Assembly: GCA_000002435.2 (NCBI GenBank)
Contig: CM018793.1
Source: Giardia intestinalis
Lineage: Eukaryota
Strand: one strand, 5' to 3'
DNA: 64,000 nucleotides
Part shown: in pieces, positions 1 through 58,777 of the stretch
How the letters are laid out: each line of letters opens with the position of its first letter
Position numbering within the stretch: position 1 is the stretch's first letter
Translations under genes and position numbers: made by a program
The notes under the pieces: generated by a model
Told to the model about the DNA's origin: nothing
Database searches by the model: none
What the model saw: the letters and a program-made list of their open reading frames with translations, nothing else

Positions 1-1290
1 TGAGGCTCCTCCATGTTGCTGGTCAGCCCGACCTCCAGGGAGCAGCTCCAAAAGAGACTACACGACGAACGAGGACCAGCAAGAGGCCAGAAGGAGCAGT
101 CGCTCGACAAATGAGGAAGAGCTAGAGATGCAACAACATGCAGGCGGCAGAGAAGAAGCAGGCACACCTAGCTCCGGTCACTTTTCCACTTATTGGACGC
201 TGAGGGATGCACTCAGTAAGGACAGCCTGTACCAGCAACGCCTCAGCTCCAGCCTGAGCACTCCCTCCCAGGCTTCTTGTACACTGCTGGAGAGAGCGTC
301 CACTTGGGCCTGCTAGGAGCAGACCCGCTCGATGAGGCCCTGGGACCTTCTCGTACTCTTCGCTGCCATCGGTGTATCCAGGTAGCGTACCGGTACTTCG
401 TGGCACTAGCGGGGAATGCTCTTCCTATCTACGCCTAGTTCCTGGAATCCCGTGCCGGTGAAGGACGCTTTGAGCACAAGCTCACACGGAGCTTAGGGCG
501 TCTGTGTTTCCGCCCAGCAGGTAGCACAGCACCAGGCGAGCAGTCGTCATGTCGCGCTGGATGCCAGCTTCTTTAATCAAGGAGCCATTCGACGCGAAGC
601 TCTTCCGGATACACAGCTTCTTGGATGGGTTGGCTCAGCAGGCCTGCTTATTGGGGTTTGCTGGGCACGGCTAGTGGTCAGCCGGCTCCTGGGTAAGGGA
701 GTTCATCCATTTCTCGGCGGTGGGCAGTGCATCCCTTCCGGCGCACCTGCTCGTGCCAGAAGGTGTGCACAGGATGATCAGAGATGCAACTGTGCTATGG
801 TGGCCGCATCCAGGGTGCAGATATAGAGGCAATAGTATACCTGTCAAGACAGCAAACGACTGCCCTGTAGCTCCTCGGCGTGTTGGCGCATGTAGGCAGA
901 GGGCTAACCAAGATGGATCTGGTGGCCGACCAACTGCACGTTAGTGTTAGCTCACAGCCCAGAGGGCGTTCGGCCGCCCGTTGTTAGACAGGAATATCTA
1001 GTGGATCGTCGACCCAGAACTGCGATGGTCGAGTCGTCTGAGCACACAGGAAACCCTGCCTCCACCTGCTGTGTATGGCCCCTGCAACGATGCACAGGCC
1101 ACGGATTGCGCGACATCCAGGCCGTCACAGCTTGCGTCTGGTGGGCCCTGCGTTATGAAGTGGCCGAGCATGCTACACGCTCTAGGAATGACTGTCTCGC
1201 CACTGACCAGGACTTCAACTATTAGCCGTTTCTACCGACCACTCGTCGATGCCCCTCGACGACCACCAGGCAAGCCGGGCTCTCCAGTCT

Positions 1291-1881
1291 TCAGCCCTTA
1301 CTGGGGTATGTATCAGCGCACCCAGGCACGCCCCCGTAGCCCGCAGGGGGGAAGCATGGCACGCATGCGAAGGAAGTGGGCGGCCCGAGAAGATCCTGGC
1401 CCGTCTGGAGCGAGAGGGTGCCGGGCCCAGGAAGAACCCCATGCTCCTCCAGGGCGGCGCGGACGTCCTGGGTGCGGAGCGCGTTGTTGTACGTCATCCG
1501 CAGCTCCTGGCGCGGATACTTCGCCCCGAAGCGCTCGTGGACCCTGCGGTAGAAGTCCGGGCCCAGGATGCTCCGGTCCCTGACCCCGGCGATGATCATC
1601 GCCTTGATGGCCCTGCGGTCCTCGCCGGTCATCTTCACGTTGAGGATGCTCCGCGAGTGCGTCTCGCGGTACCAGTGGTAGATCCTGCTCCGGTCCTCGG
1701 ACAGGGCGCGGGCGATCTTCTTCCAGTCGATGGCCGTCCGGAGCACGTGCCGGTGGAGGAGCAGCGGCCGCCGCGCGAGGCTCTCGGCCGTCTCCCCCAG
1801 CCGCCGGGCAGCGACGACCTGCTTCGCGAGCTCGAGCAGAACGGAGGCGCGCGTCTCCGCCGTCATTGCCCCAGAGCCCAT
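1291..1881 (-). CDS. Hypothetical protein (196 aa), very GC-rich; weak Myb/SANT- or HTH-like pattern (IDWKKIARAL...IYHWYRETH)
   Basis: ATG at 1879-1881 (alternative ATG at 1866), preceded by a short AT-rich stretch. The protein-like composition is on the minus strand, while the overlapping plus-strand ORF 1249..1929 is a low-complexity P/R/A-rich artefact of high GC. No family match can be confirmed by eye. Confidence 0.35.
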   Translation of the reverse strand: MGSGAMTAETRASVLLELAKQVVAARRLGETAESLARRPLLLHRHVLRTAIDWKKIARALSEDRSRIYHWYRETHSRSILNVKMTGEDRRAIKAMIIAGVRDRSILGPDFYRRVHERFGAKYPRQELRMTYNNALRTQDVRAALEEHGVLPGPGTLSLQTGQDLLGPPTSFACVPCFPPAGYGGVPGCADTYPSKG

Positions 1882-4800
1882 CCAATAGAAGCGGCGATAA
1901 AACTAAAAACAGACCAACGAATAATGTGAAATTAAATATGTACAGGCCTTGCGCAAAAGTTTTAGCGGGTGTTTGTTGCCTGCCTGCCCCGGTCCGTCGG
2001 GCGAGCAGGGCGCCCTCATCCGGGCCATCGCCGCAGTACGAGTTGGCTTAGGTCGCCACACAGAACAGACTGCTTTGCACACGGCGGCGCCGGGGTTGAT
2101 GTATTGATCGGAGTTTTTTGGTATTGCCGGGGATCCCCGCCCTCGGCCGCCAGGGAGAGCCGCGCCCTGCGCAGCCCCGGTTTGTCTGCAGACACCCAGA
2201 GCTCTGCGGAGGCAGGCAGGCTGGGGCCGTCCCCCTCGTTCGGGACATCGCCGACGACGAGCTGCTGCCTGCGGCCCGCGGGGTCTTCCGCTCTGAGAGG
2301 GGTCGCCGAGTGTCGGGAGCCGCAGCGCTCTGCAAGGCCTGCACACGACCAGAGGCTGCCCAGTTTTTTGAGCAGCTGGCTCTGGCGCGGATTCTGCGGA
2401 CGCCTGCTGCCGGCCCAGTCTACAGGGGCGTCCGCGTGTCTACTGTGGCCTGGCGTGCGTGCCTGCGCGTCCTCCTGCGGTGGCTCCCCCCGTGGCGCAG
2501 GAAGCCCTGCCAGTCCTCTCCCATCGAGTTCTCCCGACGTGCTCTCTGTCGCTTCCAGTCGAGTTTCCAGCCGATAAAGAAGCGACATGACCAAATCAGT
2601 CGCCAGATTACAGTGTGATCTGCGGCCGCGAATCTTGCTGGCATCTTACGTGACAGTGGCTCTGGGTGTGCCCGTTCAACAGCAGCTGCCTTGAACATAG
2701 GTACTTAACGTGACCCGTATGCTAATATCTGCTCGCTCAATCTGTACAGAAGGATCTAACGGTATGCCGGCTAGAGCAGTAGGACTCGTCAGGCGAGCAC
2801 ACCGGAATTGCGTGGAGTACGCATCTCTAAAGGCTTGCATGCCTGGATCTGTGCTCGTCTTCTCACTGAGACCCCAGTACAGCGAAGGCGTTTAATATAA
2901 ACAGAAAGCCGTGGTGTCACTAGGGTCTATTCGGGCCACTCAGCTATATCGATCATTCCTACCGGTAAAGCCGGACTGCTTACTACTGAGCAGAAGGAAG
3001 CGGCTCCTATGACGGCCAAGCGTGGAATCGGTACGCTGTCAAGCCTCTCGATTCAGATGCAGAGTCTGCAATGTCCACGTGAGTAGCACGCCAAGTGGTT
3101 GCCGCTTGCTTGTTATAGACTATAGATCGGCACGTAGGCTCGCGGGCCGGCTGCATCTTACTCGGAAGTACAAGACGCTGCTCCTGTCTGGATCACAGAT
3201 GCGAATCGCCGGTCCCGATGCGCACGAGTGTTACAGAGTAACAAGGAGAGCACCCGTCTATGGCACACAGTCACAATTCGAGTGGCGTCCAGCCCTCCTG
3301 GAGAAAAGGCATGCCACGATCAACGGCATACTGCTTTGAACACCAGTAAGCACACCCGCTGTGTCTGCGAAGCCGAGGGCGGCCGTATCGCCGGCTGCTA
3401 CTTGTCACTCGGACGCACATGTGTGACGAGACGTGCGGGCGCCCTTCACAAAGGCCTCTTGATGCGCAACACACGGCCCAGCCGCCTCTTCTCTGAGAGA
3501 CAGATGAACTTTGCTTGCAGTGGGCTGCGTTAGCGTAGACTTCTGAACACGTCCCTCTGTTGAGGATTCAGCGGCTACGCACTGGGGGCAGACACGCGTG
3601 TTCTGTGGCCAACACGGGACTTGGCTGAGCAAAGGAGGTAACGAGTCGGCGCTTCTGGCCCGATGCTCTGCGTGCCTGCGCCAGAGACCAGGCTGCCAAT
3701 GTGCCGGTTAAGGAGAAGATGCGATGATCCACCATCGAGGACTGCAGTACCCGCGGAGACGGGCAGGAGCGACTTTTTATGACCACGAGCCTGAGCCCTT
3801 TAAGGTCTGTGCCCGGCTCTTCGCATTACACAGCCCCTCCTCGTGTGTACCCTCAGAGAGCGCGAACATCCTCTTCGACAAGCACTTCTGTGGACACCAC
3901 AGCAGGAATGCATAGTTCTGCGTTGATCATGCCTTAGCCCTATTGGGGTTGGTGACAAAACTACGACTTCCCTGTCACGAGGCATTACGCTCTGTACAGA
4001 AGAATGCCAGCAAGTCATGCAATGCCTGTGGATCCGTCCTTCGACCTTCTCCTGACAGACATGTGTCTTTTGGCATGCAGCCCTGCATTGCACGACGGTT
4101 CGCCCTCCAAGTGATGGTCTAGAGGACTCAACGCAGTGGCTCCCAAGATATGTGTCCTGAACAGAAGACTATACGATCATATACCTCTAACCACATGAGG
4201 CCACAGCCCACTCTGCTTCTCTATGATGCGCTTAGAACTGTCTCTACGGCTCTCTGTGCTCCATACTATGCGTCTGCTTGTCTTCCACACGCCTATCCCG
4301 GAGTCTGAATTAGGCAAGGCGCACTATATTTGGGGTCACTGCCAACTGCGTTGGCTATTCAGCAAGATATGACTAAAGGCAGCGTCCAGCACGACCGAAC
4401 ATGCTTGAAAGTTACACAGGAGAATGAGTACAGTGCGGGAATGTCCCTCGGTCTACTGGTAAAATGCCGTCGGCTGCTGATACAGGCTCTTGTCTTTGTG
4501 CGGTGACATGCAATCACGTGGTACGCATAGCATCGCTATCTGCATGACGCGAGGCCAGCCAAGTTCTGCCCATCCTACCTCTTATCCTTGCGCGAAGATT
4601 CTGAAAACATAGGATGTCTGGACATGGTGTAGGGCTCTATCGGTAGACCTTCTTTTCTGCACTTCAAGACATGCAGAGGCGGGCGCAGTGTTCCCTAGAC
4701 AGAGGCCTCGGGTATGCACGCTGTTGAGCGACGACTGGAGTTCCTCTGGGGTATCTTACAAAGAGCGGCGCGCTGGCAGGGGCGTCGGTTCGGTGTTCTG

Positions 4801-5873
4801 AACAGTGATTAGGGAGCTCCGGCAAGTGAGCGCCTCTCGACTGGCTTGTGTGCCTGCAGCTACACGTGCATGGGCAGCGAGCGGTGCACAAGCCCACGAT
4901 GCTGCGGTTCTACGAATGCCTACTCCTGGTGAGTGCCGTCTGGGGACAAGGGGTGTGTACCGGTACAAACTATCCGGTGTCTCTCTGCACACCAGCCTCA
5001 TAACAATGCTCTACTGGGACTGACTCCGGAGCCAAGTAGGAGAAGAGGCCCTTCTGGGTCTTAATGGCCACGGGCCCCACTACACACCTGGCGGTGCCAC
5101 CCAGAGACCGGATAGCTTTAGAATATTATATAGAAGTTAGCAGACATGTGACTTCGTCTGGTTAGTACGCGCTCTGTGCCGATGCGACTAACGTACACTC
5201 ATCGAAGCATTACCTCGTTTACTCAGAAGTCTTACCGGATACCCAAGGGCTCTCGCTTCCTTCTAGCAGGAGATGAAGCGGCTGCAGAACAGACAGCAGG
5301 GCACCTAGGCCGTGTTGACAAACATGAAGCACAAAATAGCGAGAAGTCCCGTCATGGTAGCATTAGAAACTGCATTAGAGAGGGCGACAAGTATAAGCAC
5401 GATTATACTGGAAAGCACGGCACGCATAACAAGACGTGGATCTTGGCACACAAGAGCGTGGACTTCAAGACCGAACTAGTGAGGAGCTTCTGCAGAGTCC
5501 CGGGCCCCAACAGGTCCTCGAGTGACACAGTGGCTGCGATCACTGCCGACCCTTTTGACCAGCTGTGGGTCGGTCTCTCCGTCTGATGGTTCGTGATATG
5601 ATTTAGAGGGTCCAACTGGAAGATTCCGGACCCTCGAGGTTCAAACGACCCAGGAGGCAAACGACCTCCATAAATCGCGCCAGCCTAGTGTCCACCCCAA
5701 CCCCACCACTATCTATGCAGGTACTAGCAGTTAGCAACGTATAGCAGCTACATGAAGCTGGCGCTCAGATAGTAAACTGAAACCCAAGGATCTCCCCCCG
5801 GGAGAGGTGGCCCGCGTGCCAGGGGTTGCCTCGCACCTTGGCACAGTTGATACGAGCCCACCAGAGAAGTAAA

Positions 5874-6494
5874 ATGGACGTAGTTCCGCCGAGACTCACG
5901 TACTACGACGCCCGGGGCACCGCGTTGAAGTGCCGGCTCCTGCTCGCAGACCTGGAGATACGGTACGAGTGGGCGCCCTTGGCGAGCGCCGAGCAGGTGG
6001 CCGCGGCGAAGGTGGGTGCACCATCGTGCACGCTCCCCGTGTGGGAAGACAGCGCGGCGCGGGTGGCCGGGGGCATGGTCATCCTGGAGTACCTGGGGGC
6101 GAGCCTGGGGCGGTACAGCACGTCATTGCAGGTGCAGGCTGCTGCGCGGGCCCTGGTGCTCTTCTGTGAGGATCTCCTTGCCGCCGCCTGGAAGGAGCCC
6201 GAAGCCGTGGCAGAGGCCCTTGCCGCTGGGGCAGAGATGACGCGCTCGGAGTGCATCGCGGCCTACCGACAGAACAGGATCCTTCCGGGGCTGACCGTCC
6301 TGACCCGGGACGTGCTGAACCTTCGGAGCCTGGCGTTCGAGCCGCTCGACTCGGACTACGCGGTCCTGGAGGTCCTGTATTATGCGGACGCAGAGTGTCC
6401 GGAGCTCGTGGACCAGTTTCCGCCGCTGCGCGAGCTATTTGATGGCTACCGCGCGCGCCCGGGGATCACGAAGCTCCTCGCCTCGCTGGTCTAG
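5874..6494 (+). CDS. Glutathione S-transferase-like protein (sigma/alpha-class-like fold), 206 aa
   Basis: The track ORF starts at a TTG (5826); the first ATG is 5874, preceded by 'agaagtaaaATG'. The N-terminus 'RLTYYDARGTALKCRLLLADLEIRYEW...TLPVWEDSAARVAGGMVILEYL' matches the GST N-terminal thioredoxin-like domain (compare 'KLTYFNMRGRAEIIRYIFAYLDIQYED...IPILEVDGLTLHQSLAIARYL'). The C-terminus 'FPPLRELFDGYRARPGITKLLAS' resembles the GST C-terminal helix. GC3 is extremely high. Confidence 0.55.
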   Translation: MDVVPPRLTYYDARGTALKCRLLLADLEIRYEWAPLASAEQVAAAKVGAPSCTLPVWEDSAARVAGGMVILEYLGASLGRYSTSLQVQAAARALVLFCEDLLAAAWKEPEAVAEALAAGAEMTRSECIAAYRQNRILPGLTVLTRDVLNLRSLAFEPLDSDYAVLEVLYYADAECPELVDQFPPLRELFDGYRARPGITKLLASLV

Positions 6495-6709
6495 AGGCCG
6501 CGTGGCCGGCACGGGGTAGGGCCATTTTCAAAAAGCTCCAACGCGTTCCGCTCCAACCAGCAGCCGTGGCTACACCGCGCCGGGCTTTCGATGCTCCACG
6601 CAGAGCGAGCACTATGTATGTTTACTCGAGACGTCAGGAGACCCTGCTTCGTGGCCACTCATTCCTGGACTTCTGCGCAAGGCTGCTGAGCAGATGTAAT
6701 AGGAGATGC

Positions 6710-6726
6710 GTTTACTACCTAAGTCA
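6710..6726 (-). promoter_or_regulatory. VSP stop codon plus conserved extended polyadenylation signal (TGACTTAGGTAGTAAAC; AGTAAAC poly(A) motif)
   Basis: The reverse complement of 6710..6726 reads 'TGACTTAGGTAGTAAAC' immediately after the CRGKA codons. It is near-identical to the element after the second VSP (55037..55056). Confidence 0.7.
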
Positions 6727-8967
6727 CGCCTTGCCCCGGCACACGAACCACCAGCAGAGGAAGCCGACGAGGCCTCCGACGACGACGATGACTGCGACGG
6801 AGATGCCCGCGATGGCGCCTGTGCTGAGGCCGCTCTTGTTGACGCTTCCGCCGGTGTTATCGCCGTCTGTTTTGATATAGCAGGTGACAGGGCCACCAGC
6901 GTTACCAGCTGGAGGAGCGCAGCTTACGCAATTAGCGACACCAGTGATTTGGTTGTTATTTCCACTACTAGCTGTACATTTGAAGCATTTATCACCGGCA
7001 CCTTTGTAGTATCCAGGAAGGCATTCAGTGCAGGCATTAGAATCATTGCATTTTGCACAGCCTTCAGAGCACTCCGGACACTTCTCTTGTACAGGTGCCC
7101 GGTTATTTGCAGCACACATAGTACACTTTCCATTATTAGCTGTCGTGCAGACAGCCTTCCCGGGCAGCTTCGCCACACCATAGCACCCGCCCGACATGAG
7201 AGTATACTCTCCTGCACATTTGGTGCACTTCCCGCCTGCCGCCGTACATACGCTCGCGTCTCTCCCAGTTTTCACTGCTGTACAGATCCCGTCGATCGGG
7301 GCGTACCCGTCCTTGCACTGAGCACAGTACTTCGCGCCCCCCACGTTAGCCGTGCACTGCCCGTCTGCACAGTTGGTAATGAACGCACCAGTGCACTCCT
7401 TGACGCATGTTCCGGCTGTGCCAGATCCATACAGGAGAGAGTACCCGGGATAGCAGGCCGTGCAGGAAGCAGCGTCCGCATTGCCGTTGCATTCTGCACA
7501 CGTAGCATGGCAGGAAGCACAGACACTGACTCCGTTAATATTATCGGCATATGTCCCTGCAGGACACTGTTCTAAACATGCATTGCCCGAAGGAGTAAGC
7601 CGCTTGTCTGTACACTCAGAGCACACAACTGTCGATTCTGTTTCTCCAGAGAGCGTTTTGAGGGCACACTTTTTGCAGCCTGTGATGCCGTGTGTCGCGT
7701 CGCTGCATGAGAGGCACATCTTCTTTGAGCCAGTAGAGTCCGCGACCTCCTTGGTGAAGTGCGTCGTATCAGATGTACAGGCAGAGGCCGATACGCACAC
7801 CCCTGAGTGGGCATCAGTATCCGTCACCTTCAGATAGTTGTCTCCGCTGCAGCTAAGGCACTTATCGTCTTCACTCGTATTAGCACCGCTGACGCAATCC
7901 TTGCAACTGGAGTGGCACCCCGGCGTGGCGGCGGGGCATTTCCCGTTCTCTGGTGGTGCGCCGGTACTGCATCTAGCGCAGACATCACTCTGATCACATC
8001 GTTCACAGTTAGAGTCGGGGCAAGCGAAGCACTGCGTACCTGCAGTATTAGGCTTTTGTCCTGCATCGCACTTCTTGCACTCCTTGGCGTTCGGATCGGT
8101 GGTGTCGTCGGCGTAGTAGCCTCCGTCCCTCGTGCAGTCCTCCTTGCTGACGCACGTCCCTGTTTGGTCGCCCGGATTCGTCTTCTTCAGGTAGGGCGTG
8201 GCGCCGCCTGCCTCGCACTTCGTACAAGCCGTCGCTAAACCGCTAGAACACGCCGCGCACGTAGCATCGCACTTCTTGCACTCCTTGGCGTTCGGATCGG
8301 TGGTGTCGTCGGCGTAGTAGCCTCCGTCCCTCGTGCAGTCCTCCTTGCTGACGCACGTCCCTGTTTGGTCGCCCGGATTCGTCTTCTTCAGGTAGGGCGT
8401 GGCGCCGCCTGCCTCGCACTTCGTACAAGCCGTCGCTAAACCGCTAGAACACGCCGCGCACGTAGCATCGCACTTCTTGCACTCCTTGGCGTTCGGATCG
8501 GTGGTGTCGTCGGCGTAGTAGCCTCCGTCCCTCGTGCAGTCCTCCTTGCTGACGCACGTCCCTGTTTGGTCGCCCGGATTCGTCTTCTTCAGGTAGGGCG
8601 TGGCGCCGCCTGCCTCGCACTTCGTACAAGCCGTCGCTAAACCGCTAGAACACGCCGCGCACGTAGCATCGCACTTCTTGCACTCCTTGGCGTTCGGATC
8701 GGTGGTGTCGTCGGCGTAGTAGCCTCCGTCCCTCGTGCAGTCCTCCTTGCTGACGCACGTCCCTGTTTGGTCGCCCGGATTCGTCTTCTTCAGGTAGGGC
8801 GTGTTGCCGTTTGCGTCGCATTTGGTGCATCCTTGTCCAGTTGAGTCACATTCAGCACAACCATCGATCGATGGACTGCATGCATCAGCCAATGCAACTG
8901 CAAAAATCAAACCAATTCCTACCAACATTGAGGCCAGAAGCTGACACAGCACCGCTCTGGTTTGCAT
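6724..8967 (-). CDS. Variant-specific surface protein (VSP), ~747 aa, with internal 67-aa tandem repeats
   Basis: Many CXXC motifs. The C-terminus 'GGLVGFLCWWFVCRGKA' is followed by TGA and the conserved 'ACTTAGGTAGTAAAC' element. The track ORF extends to 9090 without a credible ATG context; the chosen ATG at 8965-8967 begins a signal peptide 'MQTRAVLCQLLASMLVGIGLIFAVALADA'. An alternative ATG lies at 8994. Confidence 0.88.
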   Translation of the reverse strand: MQTRAVLCQLLASMLVGIGLIFAVALADACSPSIDGCAECDSTGQGCTKCDANGNTPYLKKTNPGDQTGTCVSKEDCTRDGGYYADDTTDPNAKECKKCDATCAACSSGLATACTKCEAGGATPYLKKTNPGDQTGTCVSKEDCTRDGGYYADDTTDPNAKECKKCDATCAACSSGLATACTKCEAGGATPYLKKTNPGDQTGTCVSKEDCTRDGGYYADDTTDPNAKECKKCDATCAACSSGLATACTKCEAGGATPYLKKTNPGDQTGTCVSKEDCTRDGGYYADDTTDPNAKECKKCDAGQKPNTAGTQCFACPDSNCERCDQSDVCARCSTGAPPENGKCPAATPGCHSSCKDCVSGANTSEDDKCLSCSGDNYLKVTDTDAHSGVCVSASACTSDTTHFTKEVADSTGSKKMCLSCSDATHGITGCKKCALKTLSGETESTVVCSECTDKRLTPSGNACLEQCPAGTYADNINGVSVCASCHATCAECNGNADAASCTACYPGYSLLYGSGTAGTCVKECTGAFITNCADGQCTANVGGAKYCAQCKDGYAPIDGICTAVKTGRDASVCTAAGGKCTKCAGEYTLMSGGCYGVAKLPGKAVCTTANNGKCTMCAANNRAPVQEKCPECSEGCAKCNDSNACTECLPGYYKGAGDKCFKCTASSGNNNQITGVANCVSCAPPAGNAGGPVTCYIKTDGDNTGGSVNKSGLSTGAIAGISVAVIVVVGGLVGFLCWWFVCRGKA
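8060..8815 (-). repeat. 201-bp perfect tandem repeat (~3.75 copies) inside the VSP coding sequence
   Basis: Identical 61-aa antisense ORFs at 8243..8428, 8444..8629 and 8645..8830 are offset by exactly 201 nt. The protein carries 4 copies of 'PYLKKTNPGDQTGTCVSKEDCTRDGGYYADDTTDPNAKECKKCDATCAACSSGLATACTKCEAGGAT'. Confidence 0.85.
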
Positions 8968-11759
8968 TAAGAGGCGCACGGAACCCTGCTTCATGTCACG
9001 GAATTCAGTGGAACACAGCGACCAACGGAAGCGAGATCGCATCCTCGAGCCGCACCGGAGACCCGTTGATGCAGCATCCGCCCCCAGCAAGCACGACTGA
9101 GGAAGCCCAGCGCTGGCTTTCCTTGCTGTGGGAAGGCATAAGTGTATACATAGATAATGAGTGCATCCATTGCTACATTAACCCAGCTGGCGCTTGTAGC
9201 CCTTGACACCCGTAGCCACCGTGTCCTGCACCTGACTACTGCCCGAGTGACCATCGTGGGGGACACAGCGATCGTAATGCTCGTGGAGCGGCACGGGGCC
9301 GGCTCTAGGATCACCCCGCCATCCAGGCAAATGCGTACCATGAAAGGCCTCTTGTTGCCACCGTCCGAGGCTCACAGGATTGCAGGGCTCAGGCAGCCTC
9401 TGTCCCATGAGTGAGACTGGCCTCGCCCGGCGCCTCCAGCACTCTGCCAATAGCTGGCAGACAAGCGTGCACAATGGACTTAGATGGAGTGGATAAGGGA
9501 CAGCAACGCAAGACGACCAAGTAGGCGTTGACAGTACAAACACTGCCAGCCCTCGGTCAGAGAGCAGGCGTCTGGGAAAGGTGAGGGTTGCTTGTTACTC
9601 TACACCTTAACGGCCAGGCTCAACAGTAGTCACTGTTTGAGAGCTCTATTTGAAGGCACTGTAAGTGGGGTTCTTTGCCCTCCTGGATGTTGATCCCAGG
9701 AACGTGTTGCCTGATTGTTTGTCTCTGCATCGGAGTCGTTGCTAACGGCCGTCCTGGTGCAGCAAGGGGCCCATACAAGAACCATGTGCCGGGCACTACT
9801 CAAGAACAGAACAGATATCGTTGCTACTCATAGGCTTAGACCGATTTTCCGAAGCGGCAGATGTTAAGGGCAAGGACGGGGCCTGTTTCCGAGTCCCTAA
9901 TTCGAGAGTTTGTGTGAGGACCACAGCACTCTGTTAGACCTTCCTGGAAGAGGACATCCACACATATCCTTGACTCCAATCCACGTCAAAGAACGCCCAG
10001 CGGCTGCCATAGCAGTTGGGCAATGCCATCACTCCTTGCTCAGAGCTACCCATCGTTGGTGATAAGCAGCTAGCGACAGGGAAAAGCTTCTTTAGACTTC
10101 TGATTGCGCCTCAACGTTTTCAAGCCCCCCTATCGTTTTGCTGAGCCCAGGCTTCGCTGGTCTGGTGTGCTTGTATCCGTTCCAAAGCATGCTTGAAGTG
10201 GCGGCCAAGTGCTAGGCTTCATGTAGCTACCTCAGGCCACAGTGCTCGTGCGCAATAAGCAGAGTCTCCGGTCCACTGGCCACTACTCTTGCTACTCGTA
10301 AGCCTGCTCAGTGAGTGGCTATGGCAGGATCCTCCGCAAATGCGTATCTTTTGATACTTATTTCCACATGCACAGAGAAAGGTGTAGTGTAACTAGTCAA
10401 GGCATCTGCTGCTCAGCGTCCTCGCCGTGAGGGTCTACTGCATACCCCTTCAGCAGATGCTGATTAATGTGCCAGATACAACTACATCCTCAGACTGTCA
10501 GCTGTGCACGTGGTAGCTTCAGGCCATCCTCTAGCACTGTTCCAATGCCGCAGAATCTGGATGGGACATCCCGACTACAAGCGCAGCGCAAGGCTAGCGC
10601 ATTATGTCCAGCACTCTCCTACACCGCAGTTGGCTCCAGCGGCTATTGCCCTGGACTTACGTTTGGAGATAGGATGATCTGTACCCATCAGTGTGGATGA
10701 GCCATTGTCAGCCATTGTAGAAACGCTCAGAGTCAACGTAGGCAACATATTGATAGGCCGTAATGGATTGCTGGGCAGTCGTGGTACCCGGCAGCGCACT
10801 TTATGGAGCTGTGGCAAGTGAATACGCTGACTTCCGATTCACCCATCTATTAGGGTCCAGACACTTCAAATGGATATGCGGTATATGCTAGCCACGGTTC
10901 AGACTGCCAGCTGCATGGATCCTGTGACTGGCCATTAGACATCTTTAATGTGGTTGTAACACAGTGAAGTGGTACTATATACGTTTGCTGGCGATCATCC
11001 GCTATGCACAAATGTACCCGTCGGAGGCCAGTGTATCGGTCACTTTCTGCTGCGAAGGGAATGCTTAGCCGCTAGCACAGCCGATTCTCTACACCCTACT
11101 GATGGCTGTTTTGCGTATATCAGGCTTGGTATCCGCAAGCAGAGTATCCAGTTAGCAACAGACCAGGGTTATGTTCATCGGAGCAGATGATCAAGCGCCA
11201 GAGCTGGATTGTCAAGTCCCAGAAGGTGCCACCTCTTCTGGAACGCCCCTACAAAAGCAAGAACCCGACAGCGGAGTTGTGAGGAACTCGAAGTAGAGCT
11301 AGGTGAGAGTCTTAAAAGTCCATAGTGGTGGGGCTGACCGAGGCTTATAGGAACTAGTGATGAGCAGGTTCACAAAGATAGCCACTTAAGTTCAAGGTCT
11401 TCTAACGTTTCAATCTTTTCTGCATCTGTTTATATATTAGTAAAGAGGGTAAGAAGGAGTGTGCTCACCACCTACAGTACTTGGCTAGCTATACCTCCTA
11501 GAATTAGTATTATAGTGAGGTCTAGTGGATCCTTTATCTGCACTATCACTGTAAAATGGAGTACATGTTTGAATTCATGAATCAAAATTTCTGATCCCTT
11601 GATCTAGTAGATGCACTTATTAGCTGCATATCAAGATAACCAAAGTCCGGTAGAGAGGACTATTATACTCACCGTTATAACCTTACTCAATTTCAAAATT
11701 TGGCAGGACTCCTTAATTTCCTTGTTGACACAAAGCCCATAAACTCAATTAAAGAGAAT

Positions 11760-55036: not shown

Positions 55037-55056
55037 GTTTACTACCTAAGTATCTA
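55037..55056 (-). promoter_or_regulatory. VSP stop codon plus conserved extended polyadenylation signal (TAGATACTTAGGTAGTAAAC)
   Basis: Reverse complement of 55037..55056. The block 'gatgcgtttactacctaagt' is shared with the 3' end of the first VSP (6704..6724). Confidence 0.7.
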
Positions 55057-56805
55057 TGCCTTTCCGCGGCACAGGAACCACCAACACAAGAAGCCCACAA
55101 GACCACCAACAACAACAATCACAGCAACAGAGATGCCCGCGATCGCGCCGGTAGAAAGGCCACTCTTGTTGACGCTTCCGCCGTTGTCAGTGCCATCCAT
55201 CTTCACATAGCAGGTGACAGAACCGCTATCACCAGATGGTGGAGCACAACTCACGCAATTGGTCACGCCAGTAATTTGGCTGTCACTAGCATCACACTTC
55301 ACACACTTTGTTCCAGACTTATAGTACCCAGAGAAGCAAGTTTGACACTGCTGTGTCTGTCCTGCTGCGCACGTCTTGCAGGTGGAGTCGCACAGCGGGC
55401 ACACTCCGGTCCCGCTGTTTGGGTTTTGTCCATTCGCACATGTTTGGCATTTCCCTCCACTGTCAGTCGTGCAGATGCTTTTCCCGGGGAGCCTCGTCGT
55501 CTGGTAGCACCCGCCCTCCTGGATGAAGTATCCGGCGGCGCAGGCCGTGCAGGCACCGTCAGCGGCAGTGGTGCAGAACCGAGTCCTGGCCGCATTGCTC
55601 GTGCAGACGCCATTGAGCGGCACGTTGCTCCCCTTGCACTTCGAGCAGTACTTGGTACCTCCAATTGTTAGGCCGCACGTCTCGCACTCTGGACCCTCCA
55701 CGCATTGCTCCACGCACGTGCCGTCTGTAGGATTGCTCTCGTCGGCGTACCTCAGCATCTTCCCGGCGGGACAGGCCGTGCACTTGGAAGCGCCGGCCCC
55801 GCTGCACTCCGCACAGGAGGGGTCGCAGGGCCCGCACGTTTGCCCAACCGCGTACGACCCGGCCGGACAAGACGCCAAGCAAGCGTTCTTCTCTGGAGTG
55901 AGGAAGTAGTTACCTTGGCACTTTGTGCACGTCTGCTTGTCATCCGAGCACACCTCGCAGTTGGGGAGATTGCAATCAGGGGCGGGGACTCCGTCGCATG
56001 TGTTAGTCTCAGAGTTTGGTGTTCCCTGAGGGCACGCGGTGTAGCATCCTCCGCTGTAGAGGTAGGTGCTCCCCTGGCACGCCTTGCAGGTCCCGTCGGG
56101 GGCGTCCTGCGGCGTGCACTTGTCCTGCCCGTCCTTCGCCTGGCACGCCCCCTCGACCGGGACGTGGGTGGCCTGGCACTTCACACAGCGGGTGCCTGCG
56201 TCCTTCTTCTCACACTTTACGCAGGAGGCTTCACAGGGTTGGCAGACCCCGGCATCTGCATAGGTCCCGTCGGGGCACGCGGCGTAGCATCCTCCGCTGT
56301 AGAGGTAGGTGCTCCCCTGGCACGCCTTGCAGGTCCCGTCGGGGGCGTCCTGCGGCGTGCACTTGTCCTGCCCGTCCTTCGCCTGGCACGCCCCCTCGAC
56401 CGGGACGTGGGTGGCCTGGCACTTCACACAGCGGGTGCCTGCGTCCTTCTTCTCACACTTTACGCAGGAGGCTTCACAGGGTTGGCAGACCCCGGCATCT
56501 GCATAGGTCCCGTCGGGGCACGCGGCGTAGCATCCTCCGCTGTAGAGGTAGGTGCTCCCCTGGCACGCCTTGCAGGTCCCGTCGGGGGCGTCCTGCGGCG
56601 TGCACTTGTCCTGCCCGTCCTTCGCCTGGCACGCCCCCTCGACCGGGACGTGGGTGGCCTCGCATTTTGTGCAAACCTCTTTTTGCTGGCCATTTATATT
56701 GACATCTAGACAGTTATTTCCAGATGCACAATTTTGAGAGTTGGTGCACGATTTTGGATCTGCAAGCGCCAAGTAAGCGAATGCTAAACCTGCCAAGTAC
56801 AACAT
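55054..56805 (-). CDS. Variant-specific surface protein (VSP), ~583 aa, with internal 81-aa tandem repeats
   Basis: CXXC-rich. C-terminus 'GGLVGFLCWWFLCRGKA' + TAG + 'ATACTTAGGTAGTAAAC'. The track ORF starts at a GTG (56826); the first ATG at 56803-56805 gives the signal peptide 'MLYLAGLAFAYLALADP'. Confidence 0.88.
   Translation of the reverse strand: MLYLAGLAFAYLALADPKSCTNSQNCASGNNCLDVNINGQQKEVCTKCEATHVPVEGACQAKDGQDKCTPQDAPDGTCKACQGSTYLYSGGCYAACPDGTYADAGVCQPCEASCVKCEKKDAGTRCVKCQATHVPVEGACQAKDGQDKCTPQDAPDGTCKACQGSTYLYSGGCYAACPDGTYADAGVCQPCEASCVKCEKKDAGTRCVKCQATHVPVEGACQAKDGQDKCTPQDAPDGTCKACQGSTYLYSGGCYTACPQGTPNSETNTCDGVPAPDCNLPNCEVCSDDKQTCTKCQGNYFLTPEKNACLASCPAGSYAVGQTCGPCDPSCAECSGAGASKCTACPAGKMLRYADESNPTDGTCVEQCVEGPECETCGLTIGGTKYCSKCKGSNVPLNGVCTSNAARTRFCTTAADGACTACAAGYFIQEGGCYQTTRLPGKSICTTDSGGKCQTCANGQNPNSGTGVCPLCDSTCKTCAAGQTQQCQTCFSGYYKSGTKCVKCDASDSQITGVTNCVSCAPPSGDSGSVTCYVKMDGTDNGGSVNKSGLSTGAIAGISVAVIVVVGGLVGFLCWWFLCRGKA
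56030..56670 (-). repeat. 243-bp tandem repeat (~2.6 DNA copies, 3 protein copies) inside the VSP coding sequence
   Basis: Identical antisense ORFs at 56066..56263 and 56309..56506 (offset 243 nt), with a diverging third copy at 56552..56737. The protein repeat is 'C.KC.ATHVPVEGACQAKDGQDKCTPQDAPDGTCKACQGSTYLYSGGCYAACPDGTYADAGVCQPCEASCVKCEKKDAGTR'. Confidence 0.85.
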
Positions 56806-58777
56806 TGCCCGCCGAATCACGCTCACACTAAGGGGCGATCAGATAGCAGTGGAAGCCGCCTCCACCGGGCCGCATGCATCCTTCAGCGTATCGCTGTGAG
56901 CACGCCGCAGTGTAGAACAAGAAGGCATTGGTGCTTTTCTGCGGTACCCAAGGACTGACAGCTGACTGGTGCCCTACTCAAGAGCATCCTATCGAGGCCA
57001 TCTGTTGCAGGCGGGCGTGGCTTGTGTATCGTTAAAGCCGCCATAATGTCGTGCCCTACAAGCTTTGGAAAAGTGTATAGCCCGCATGTGCATCATCCGT
57101 CAATTTGCTCTGCTAGGAGGTAGACAGCACTCATAAAGCGGGCTCCACTACCAAGGACCCTCTTCGAGAAAGGCATAGACGAACTTGAGGAGGCCTTCCA
57201 AGATAGCCAGGTTCTGCACTAATAGGCAGCGATGACGTTGGCACAGGAGATGCAGAATGTGACATGGCCTCACGACATGGCACATGAACATTTTAACACT
57301 GCCCACAAGGAAAGTCCATTGCGATAGTATGCATTGATATGTAAATGTTGTTGCTAGGCTCTTTGGTCGTGAGAAGATATTAGCCTCCTTTCTCAGTGAC
57401 GCGACTGTTCGATGCAGATCCTACACGAACAGCTTCTTCACTTTCGGGCGACACTCACTGAGTCCGCTTAGACGCTCTAACATCTCTGCCCGCCTGGGCA
57501 GGCGAAATACATGGATCCTTGGCCGTTCTAGGCAGGTGCCGCTGTGCCTCACCCCATTCGGCTGCTCGCTCCTCACGCCTTAGCATATTTGGCTGCAGCG
57601 CTGTAGGATCTGGGATACACCTTTGAGCGGCGCACAGCGTGCCGGGCACCTGGCCAAGCTTCACAAAAGACCCATGACAGCCAAAATGCGCAGCTCCGGA
57701 TCTATTCTCCTACGGACTCGGCGCACTCAGAGGGAAGGCTGCCGCAAGGTAGCTGGCCACGCCTCTTTATCTCCAGTGTCTTGTGGCTGATACATTGCTG
57801 CATCTTCTATCCAAGCAGCCAGCACGTGTCCGGAGTAACAAAGCATTCTATTGAGGAAACTTCTGTGTCAGGTAGCACCGCCATAGTAGCTTTTTTCATA
57901 TAGAAGAGCATCAAAGGTATCCCTGATAACCACAGACCCACATAGGCTTCAGCGTCATCATGGCCAGCAGCCAGTGCATCGTACCCTGTTTTTAACACGG
58001 CTAAACGTGTCAGAATGCTTACCGTACATCCATGAGCGGGTTGCATAGATAAAGTTCCTCTGACTTACGACTATAATTCTAAGTGGTGCACCGCGCTGCA
58101 AAGGTCGTCTGAGGACGGTGTGCCTCAAACGTCCTAACTCACTATACAGTTGCACCTAATCCCCCTGACCATTAAGTCGATAGGTCTGAACCGCTGGTCA
58201 CGTACTCCAAGATTAGGCGGCAGACGGCTTGAACTTCTATGACATCTCGCAGCTGGACTTACTGATTCAGACTTTCCATTCTGAGCTGGCGTGCTGCACT
58301 TAGTCCTGCACGCGTAAGATCCTCCGGTCACAAGTTCGCAGACAGTGAGAACCAGCCAAAAAGCCACGGGAAAAGAGAGTGAGGACTCAATGGTTCTAAT
58401 CCTTCCAAGGTACAACCGCTGAGTTACAGTTGTCTTGTAATAAAACCTGCATATACTCGCTGCACTGTATCAAATACTAGCGATCGTTGGATAACCACAA
58501 TTCTTCCACCCTTTGAGGTCTTAGTCCAGCTTATCTTTGTCCAATGTCCAGTGACCGGACGTGTTGTTCGACAGTGCTTTCTGGTCACGCTATTCACTTA
58601 ATAAGTTATTTCGTCGCGGAGAAACGTACTCAGTAACACAAAAAAGGTCATACAATGCGTACTGAAGTCAGGATCAATTGCATATATGCAAAGCTTATCT
58701 CTAAGCTCACATGATGATTGAAAAAAAGCTCACTAGCACTGGCACGGAAATAATATAGGAAAAGCAGCAAAGGCATA

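Follow-up and report, generated by a model that had tools for sequence, protein, structure and literature searches.

What is a GC-rich open reading frame (ORF) with the signatures of a glutathione S-transferase (GST) doing next to a VSP gene in Giardia intestinalis, an organism generally held to lack glutathione metabolism? The ORF in question occupies positions 5874 to 6494 of a 64,000-nucleotide stretch of contig CM018793.1 (assembly GCA_000002435.2), which we refer to as the window. The first-pass annotation of this DNA offered lateral gene transfer, a GST-fold protein repurposed for another function, or a nonfunctional relic as explanations. Our analysis supports a plainer answer: very probably, the ORF is a genuine, intact, and vertically inherited gene of assemblage A (isolate WB), one of three near-identical paralogs, that encodes a soluble protein with a GST fold of the Tyr-type pi/sigma/alpha group and owes its GC richness to the region in which it lies. 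The coding sequence and its two domains are as follows.

5874-6494, plus strand: coding sequence of the GST-like protein (206 amino acids plus the stop codon TAG), identical to KAE8304978.1/XP_037902195.1
5874-6107, plus strand: N-terminal thioredoxin-like domain, residues 1 to 78 (secondary structure of the AlphaFold2 [AF2] model; HMMER alignments to GSTP1, OvGST2, and GSTA1; column table)
6126-6491, plus strand: C-terminal all-helical GST domain, residues 85 to 206 (AF2 model; clade alignments; GST_C_3 matched by 10 of 14 and GST_C by 7 of 14 clade members)

The frame is intact from the ATG at 5874, which is preceded by the A-rich stretch GTAAA, to the TAG at 6492-6494, and its codon-position periodicity is strong. 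The strings LTYYDARG, LEIRYEW, TLPVWED, and ILEYL, by which the ORF had originally been recognized, are all present in the translation. The encoded protein is 100% identical to the "Glutathione S-transferase-like protein" of G. intestinalis WB, KAE8304978.1/XP_037902195.1, and the gene is already annotated under that name in GenBank, RefSeq, and UniProt. WB carries two paralogs: KAE8304971.1, which differs by one residue and lies on the same 4.02-Mb contig, and XP_001708273.1/A8BBE3, which is 97% identical and lies on a different contig. Orthologs were found in the assemblage E isolate P15 (GLP15_1665, 88% identity), in two further Giardia lineages, at 68% and 66%, known from metagenome and Logan assemblies, and in Giardia muris (TNJ27416.1). 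All are intact, differing by substitutions and by in-frame N-terminal length, and all keep the start context AAA|ATG. The ratio of nonsynonymous to synonymous substitution rates (dN/dS; Nei-Gojobori method) is 0.27 between WB and P15 (dS, 0.33) and 0.08 to 0.13 in comparisons of more distant assemblages, for which dS approaches saturation. Because the frame shows codon-position periodicity, is intact in every ortholog, and evolves with a dN/dS of 0.08 to 0.27, it is not a chance frame. The frame disruptions that would betray a chance ORF occur in none of the orthologs examined. The idea of a nonfunctional relic fails for the family, on which purifying selection acts, and concerns only the window paralog, whose radical substitutions at otherwise invariant positions are weighed below.

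The relatives of the protein bear on its origin. When 1.84 billion cluster representatives were searched exhaustively with HMMER, only 29 proteins reached an E value of ≤1e-3. The P15 ortholog led, and next came those of G. muris (1.4e-52), a Logan contig and a JGI/IMG metagenome protein, Dysnectes, Ceratiomyxa, Kipferlia, and Chilomastix; Ergobibamus and Physarum ranked lower, and canonical metazoan-type GSTs came later. Outside Giardia, the best named matches are to the fornicates Dysnectes brevis, Kipferlia bialata, Chilomastix cuspidata, and Ergobibamus cyprinoides and the amoebozoans Ceratiomyxa and Physarum. In a neighbor-joining tree, the Giardia (100% bootstrap), other fornicate (68%), and amoebozoan (91%) clades all fell outside the canonical alpha/sigma cluster (100%), and two derived characters are common to the clade, namely, Gly or His at the position of Gln64 of human GSTP1 and a tryptophan at position 106. 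No prokaryotic relative was detected in 185,579 genomes by tblastn together with a motif scan built from a Giardia-only alignment, a scan that detects fairly close relatives only. These data, with orthologs present in every G. intestinalis assemblage sampled and also in G. muris, show that the gene is ancient and vertically inherited, and the phylogeny called for at the outset places its nearest relatives among eukaryotes. The Hexamitinae (Spironucleus and Trepomonas) were not represented among the 20 matches whose source was looked up; this suggests that the family may be absent from the group, an absence that would parallel the loss of glutathione synthesis there. The closest non-Giardia relative lies at 2832-3482 of a 20.6-kb Logan contig (L004, from SRR31929897) and groups as sister to the Giardia clade (bootstrap, 100%). 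As this contig has 58% GC and long standard-code ORFs, its source may be an unsampled Giardia relative (Giardiinae-like) rather than a hexamitine.

Sequence models and a predicted structure agree with the earlier description of a GST fold made of a thioredoxin-like N-terminal domain and a helical C-terminal domain. In Pfam searches with the single sequence, only GST_N_2 passed its cutoff (27.3 bits versus 25), GST_N (19.8 versus 20.9) and GST_C_3 (14.5 versus 21.6) falling slightly below theirs, and a search of NCBIfam with the window protein gave no match. At the level of the 14 clade members, both domain families are matched, the GST_N and GST_C families by 7 to 11 of them. With phmmer, residues 5 to 204 align collinearly with human GSTP1 (4.6e-5), and a profile of the 14 members retrieves pi- and alpha-class GSTs from the PDB over their full length at about 5e-31. 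AF2 modeling with a 28-sequence alignment yielded a predicted local distance difference test (pLDDT) score of 95.7 and a predicted template modeling (TM) score of 0.90; an earlier AlphaFold run with only five Giardia sequences had reached a pLDDT of 56, and that model was discarded. The accepted model has the architecture of the cytosolic GST superfamily, a beta-alpha-beta-alpha-beta-beta-alpha thioredoxin-like domain followed by an all-helical domain, and Foldseek matched it to GSTA1 and GSTP1 at 3e-10 with a TM score of 0.74. The window protein is therefore a soluble GST fold of the Tyr-type pi/sigma/alpha group.

Several residues of the active site are retained. Tyr10 (5901-5903), at the C-terminal end of beta-1, aligns with the catalytic Tyr7 of GSTP1 and is kept across the clade except in Kipferlia, which has Phe, and in Ergobibamus. 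The cis-Pro loop Leu54-Pro55 (6033-6038), before beta-3, corresponds to Leu52-Pro53 of GSTP1 and is invariant in the 14-sequence clade alignment, Pro55 being invariant in the 28-sequence alignment also. Lys46 and Asp100, the counterparts of Lys44 and Asp98, are kept too. In the helical domain, the alpha-6 capping residue Asp161 (6354-6356) is found in at least 90% of the clade sequences, the capping Ser position is Leu158 in Giardia, and Trp106 (6189-6191) in alpha-4 is clade specific and invariant. The Gln/Glu-Ser/Thr motif that binds the gamma-glutamyl group at the start of alpha-3, a mark of the Tyr-type cytosolic GSTs, is absent, and Gly66-Gly67 (6069-6074) stands in its place. At the Gln64 position, almost all members of the clade have Gly or His, Ergobibamus having Gln, and the residue after it is Ser in most orthologs and Gly in WB; at this clamp, canonical GSTs of that alignment carry Gln/Glu-Ser/Thr, except ENA_P0041 (Gly-Ser). 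Since the replacement of Gln by Gly is common to aerobic amoebozoans, it is a trait of the clade and not an adaptation to a low-glutathione cell.

The composition of the gene has a regional explanation. The anomaly that drew attention to the ORF is real: its GC content is 0.678 (0.71, 0.47, and 0.85 at the first, second, and third codon positions [GC1, GC2, and GC3]), and the sliding-window GC maximum of 0.67 to 0.68 is centered on it. Elsewhere in the window, GC3 is 0.41 to 0.55 in large housekeeping ORFs and 0.64 and 0.72 in two VSP genes. Among the orthologs, GC3 is 0.94 (0.944) in P15, 0.61 on an assemblage B-like contig, 0.37 in a GC-poor lineage, and 0.54 in G. muris, and the neighboring genes have values of 0.30 to 0.33 in the GC-poor lineage and 0.57 to 0.74 in G. 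muris. A strong departure from the neighbors is thus confined to assemblages A and E, and because the orthologs of G. muris and the GC-poor lineage have neighbor-like GC3, the excess arose inside Giardia. At the P15 locus (ACVC01000177.1, 1-2100), the ortholog ends a 2.1-kb block of 67 to 77% GC that abuts a core of 38 to 45% GC with the CPSF and mTOR genes, the shift taking place within about 100 bp. The 1.4 kb upstream of the P15 ortholog contains only overlapping ORFs that are artifacts of GC richness, and then the contig ends.

In the window, a second ORF at 1291-1881 on the minus strand (196 amino acids; GC1, 0.66; GC2, 0.52; GC3, 0.89) has no Pfam domain and belongs to a Giardia-specific, multicopy hypothetical family (GL50803_0061066, GLP15_5233, and GSB_153196) unrelated to the GST-like gene. 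Overlapping ORFs on both strands at 1291-1881 are by-products of GC richness. Codon usage of the GST-like gene favors CTG, CGG, GGG, CCG, GTG, and ACG, with G at 101 and C at 74 third positions, and its effective number of codons is 37.7, close to the value of 42.1 that GC3s alone would predict. In highly expressed Giardia genes, most optimal codons end in C (CUC, CGC, GGC, GCC, and CCC), CGG and GUG being nonoptimal, and native Giardia genes span 39 to 81% GC and 26 to 99% GC3s (PMC8393687; codons in its Table 4). Translational selection was rejected as the cause of the high GC3 because the preferred codons are G-ending (CGG, GGG, CCG, and GTG), not the optimal ones. Since an unrelated native gene at 1291-1881 has the same signature and the excess is confined to the A/E lineage, regional GC pressure is indicated; the GC richness is regional and specific to this lineage and is no mark of foreign origin. 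We infer that the probable cause is either gene conversion biased toward GC or a mutational bias local to this VSP-associated, duplicated DNA.

Several observations weigh against this overall picture of a native gene with a working GST fold. Five glutathione contacts (GSTP1 numbering) are replaced, Arg13 by Thr16, Trp38 by Glu40, Gln51 by Thr53, Gln64 by Gly66, and Ser65 by Gly67, and as several such residues are lost, catalysis with glutathione is unproven. At the alpha/mu/pi dimer interface, the aromatic "key" residue is Tyr49; it aligns with Ser51, which leaves dimerization uncertain. In the helical domain, the window copy has N149, F155, D159, and C175, the residues in all other assemblages being S, P/A, Y, and Y, respectively, and these changes may impair the protein. 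In the simple neighbor-joining tree, the node uniting Giardia with the other fornicates has less than 50% bootstrap. No canonical AGTRAAY poly(A) signal occurs within 100 nucleotides of the stop codon in any ortholog, a result that we regard as uninformative; and searches of the accessible literature by gene name, UniProt accession, and "GST-like" returned no study describing the gene. The finding itself is an ordinary one, a native, conserved, and previously annotated gene whose GC richness is regional.

The premise that Giardia lacks glutathione metabolism is overstated: to our knowledge, glutathione reductase and peroxidase are indeed absent and cysteine is the main thiol, yet the enzymes of glutathione synthesis are encoded. 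GSH1 (glutamate-cysteine ligase) and GSH2 (glutathione synthetase) are present and under transcriptional regulation, being upregulated in encystation (PMC6934886 and PMC8700996), and Giardia thioredoxin reductase can reduce glutathione; the Hexamitinae lost the glutathione capacity (PMC6934886, PMC8700996, and PMC7762791). Because Giardia encodes GSH1 and GSH2, a GST-like protein is less paradoxical in this organism. The most likely role would be that of a thiol-dependent transferase or a ligand-binding detoxification protein. Within the canonical GST fold, a site for thiol activation would be built from Tyr10, where beta-1 ends, and the loop of cis-Pro55, beside a hydrophobic cosubstrate pocket lined by the helical domain with its invariant Trp106. 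The thiol may be glutathione, or gamma-glutamylcysteine, which GSH1 and GSH2 could make. Because the Gln that clamps the gamma-glutamyl amine is replaced by Gly throughout most of the clade, and the adjacent Ser is replaced as well in WB, glutathione binding is probably weakened or altered.

GST-like domains also serve as interaction modules, as in eEF1Bgamma and the aminoacyl-tRNA-synthetase complex. A protein of this kind, a ligandin or carrier or a protein-protein interaction module with no thiol chemistry, is a possibility to be taken seriously, though on balance a doubtful one. The five replaced contacts, including the change of the Gln-Ser clamp to Gly-Gly in WB, would fit it, as would the dominance of cysteine, not glutathione, among Giardia thiols (PMC6934886) and a report that Giardia has neither GST activity nor glutathione cycling (PMC5377010). 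Tyr10 and the Leu54-Pro55 loop, kept as they are, would form part of the thiol-activating site that we propose. A 2026 paper names GST-like enzymes among the key antioxidant defenses of Giardia, its citation being a thioredoxin reductase study (PMC13414986); it conflicts with PMC5377010, and neither mentions the annotated GST-like genes.

The state of the window copy raises a separate question, since the family could be functional while this copy and its twin KAE8304971.1, recently duplicated in a recombination-prone, VSP-rich region, decay as pseudogenes in the making. For DNA comparison of the A-type copies, we used assemblage A contigs from metagenome and Logan assemblies (L006 to L008) in place of WB paralog DNA, and one duplicated unit emerged.

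4788-6571, plus strand: duplicated segment with the gene, comprising about 1.1 kb upstream, the coding sequence, and 77 bp downstream (blastn; 94.5% identity to the assemblage A metagenome loci L006 and L007)

Because this 1.8-kb unit is common to assemblage A contigs and blastn homology to the P15 locus is limited to 5889-6549, with no P15 downstream gene in the window, the copy is a dispersed duplicate, a segment of at least 1.8 kb having been duplicated into a VSP-bearing region. Its position outside the ancestral syntenic locus beside mTOR and CPSF (seen in P15 and ERR3333381) would suit a decaying copy, and so would its departure from all other assemblages at residues 149, 155, 159, and 175, including the change of Tyr159 to Asp, which adjoins the alpha-6 capping Asp161 at the position of GSTP1 Phe150. 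However, the frame is intact, the start context is kept, and the exact sequence gives a confident AF2 model. Moreover, dN/dS between the window copy and the other A-type sequence is 0.35, which, with only 20 differences, is indistinguishable from the 0.23 to 0.28 of the family and not clearly relaxed. The same variant residues recur in a contig of another isolate (L008), so that they persist in populations. Decay of the window copy is unlikely in our judgment. In L008 (Logan contig from SRR29338408, 934-1554), an assemblage A sequence with the 3' flank of the ancestral P15-type locus, the coding sequence has the window-type N149, F155, D159, and C175 and A8BBE3-type residues at 105, 189, and 199. 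Such a mosaic points to conversion of one paralog by another or else to a chimeric assembly.

That the Fornicata/Amoebozoa clade constitutes an undescribed GST class is rather improbable. Such a class would have a remodeled glutathione-binding site (G-site), with the Gln clamp changed to Gly and an invariant Trp in alpha-4, and in Giardia it might use cysteine or gamma-glutamylcysteine; if so, it would be a thiol transferase of new specificity, possibly relevant to the detoxification of electrophiles or nitro drugs. We consider it highly improbable that the protein is, as had been proposed among the repurposed functions, a sigma-class GST resembling prostaglandin D synthase, one that would make eicosanoid-like mediators: the best matches in sequence and structure are to the pi and alpha classes, haematopoietic prostaglandin D synthase reaches only an E value of 0.19 with the single sequence, and prostaglandin D synthase activity needs bound glutathione, the contacts for which are degraded here. 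The other proposal of this kind, an eEF1Bgamma-like protein, was not borne out, the window protein failing to show the combination of an EF1G C-terminal domain with closest similarity to the GST domains of eEF1Bgamma. Acquisition from a GC-rich bacterium would account for the GC content; it is contradicted and most improbable, given that all close relatives are eukaryotic, that the scan of prokaryotic genomes, sensitive to fairly close relatives only, found none, that the orthologs of G. muris and the GC-poor Giardia lineage match their own genomic GC3, and that a second, Giardia-specific gene of the island has a GC3 of 0.89.

The surroundings of the gene conform in outline to the ORF-poor, GC-rich island described earlier. 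Positions 1-11000 have 57.6% GC, compared to 45.3% in the gene-dense core at 11001-54000, and ORFs of at least 250 amino acids that begin with ATG cover none of 1-5873 and 95% of 11001-54000. The island is not free of genes, however, as the conserved gene at 1291-1881 on the minus strand demonstrates. The neighboring VSP gene, correctly recognized at the start, follows 229 bp beyond the GST-like ORF.

6724-9090, minus strand: VSP gene, convergent with the GST-like gene (Pfam VSP, 7.7e-65; C terminus CRGKA), given for context and not as a functional partner

At about 7900-8830, this VSP gene contains four near-identical tandem copies of a 67-amino-acid unit (GATPYLKKTNPGDQTGTCVSKEDCTRDGGYYADDTTDPNAKECKKCDATCAACSSGLATACTKCEAG), and identical off-frame ORFs of 61 amino acids recur within it every 201 bp (8243, 8444, and 8645). 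A second VSP gene at 55054-56826 on the minus strand (Pfam VSP, 1.1e-115; GC3, 0.72) lies toward the opposite end of the window, in a further local patch of high GC, with ordinary core genes (Maf1, Mob1, and Tfb4-like) on its flanks.

Part of the literature denies GST to Giardia (PMC5377010), whereas the reference annotation has three GST-like genes and the genome encodes glutathione biosynthesis. A real gene that is conserved in other fornicates, G. muris, and G. intestinalis and is under purifying selection supports a residual glutathione-linked or related thiol chemistry in Giardia. The altered G-site turns the thiol specificity of the protein into a simple, testable question of biochemistry that may matter for drug metabolism. 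The locus also counsels caution, as an extreme GC3 in Giardia can be regional and lineage specific and is by itself no evidence of gene transfer. The overall importance is modest.

Comparison with known systems places the protein as follows. Pi-class GSTs, such as human GSTP1 and Onchocerca volvulus GST2 (PDB 1tu7), are about 19 to 21% identical to it. The window protein departs from them in that Arg13, Trp38, Gln51, Gln64, and Ser65 are not conserved and Tyr49 is Ser, and its clade adds the invariant Trp in alpha-4. Sigma-class GSTs and haematopoietic prostaglandin D synthase (PDB 2wb9, 2hnl, and 6w8h) have in their G-site the Gln-Ser motif that is missing here, and their similarity to the window protein is weaker than that of the pi and alpha classes. 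The GST-like domain at the N terminus of eEF1Bgamma, the GST-like protein discussed for Giardia (PMC5377010), is likewise a GST fold in an organism whose glutathione chemistry is slight. The nearest relatives are those of the Fornicata/Amoebozoa GST-like clade, only 23 to 45% identical to the window protein and mostly about 200 to 215 amino acids long, which have the same Gly/His and Trp106. In most of them, Ser follows the Gly and the Tyr49 position is aromatic, two features lost from G. intestinalis WB. In Kipferlia KIPB_001429 (580 amino acids), the homolog is a C-terminal domain (about 380 to 575) that follows a long N-terminal extension. The first 75 or so residues of KIPB_001429 look ubiquitin-like by eye, its middle part is of low complexity and rich in Pro, Ser, Thr, and Val, and its catalytic Tyr is replaced by Phe.

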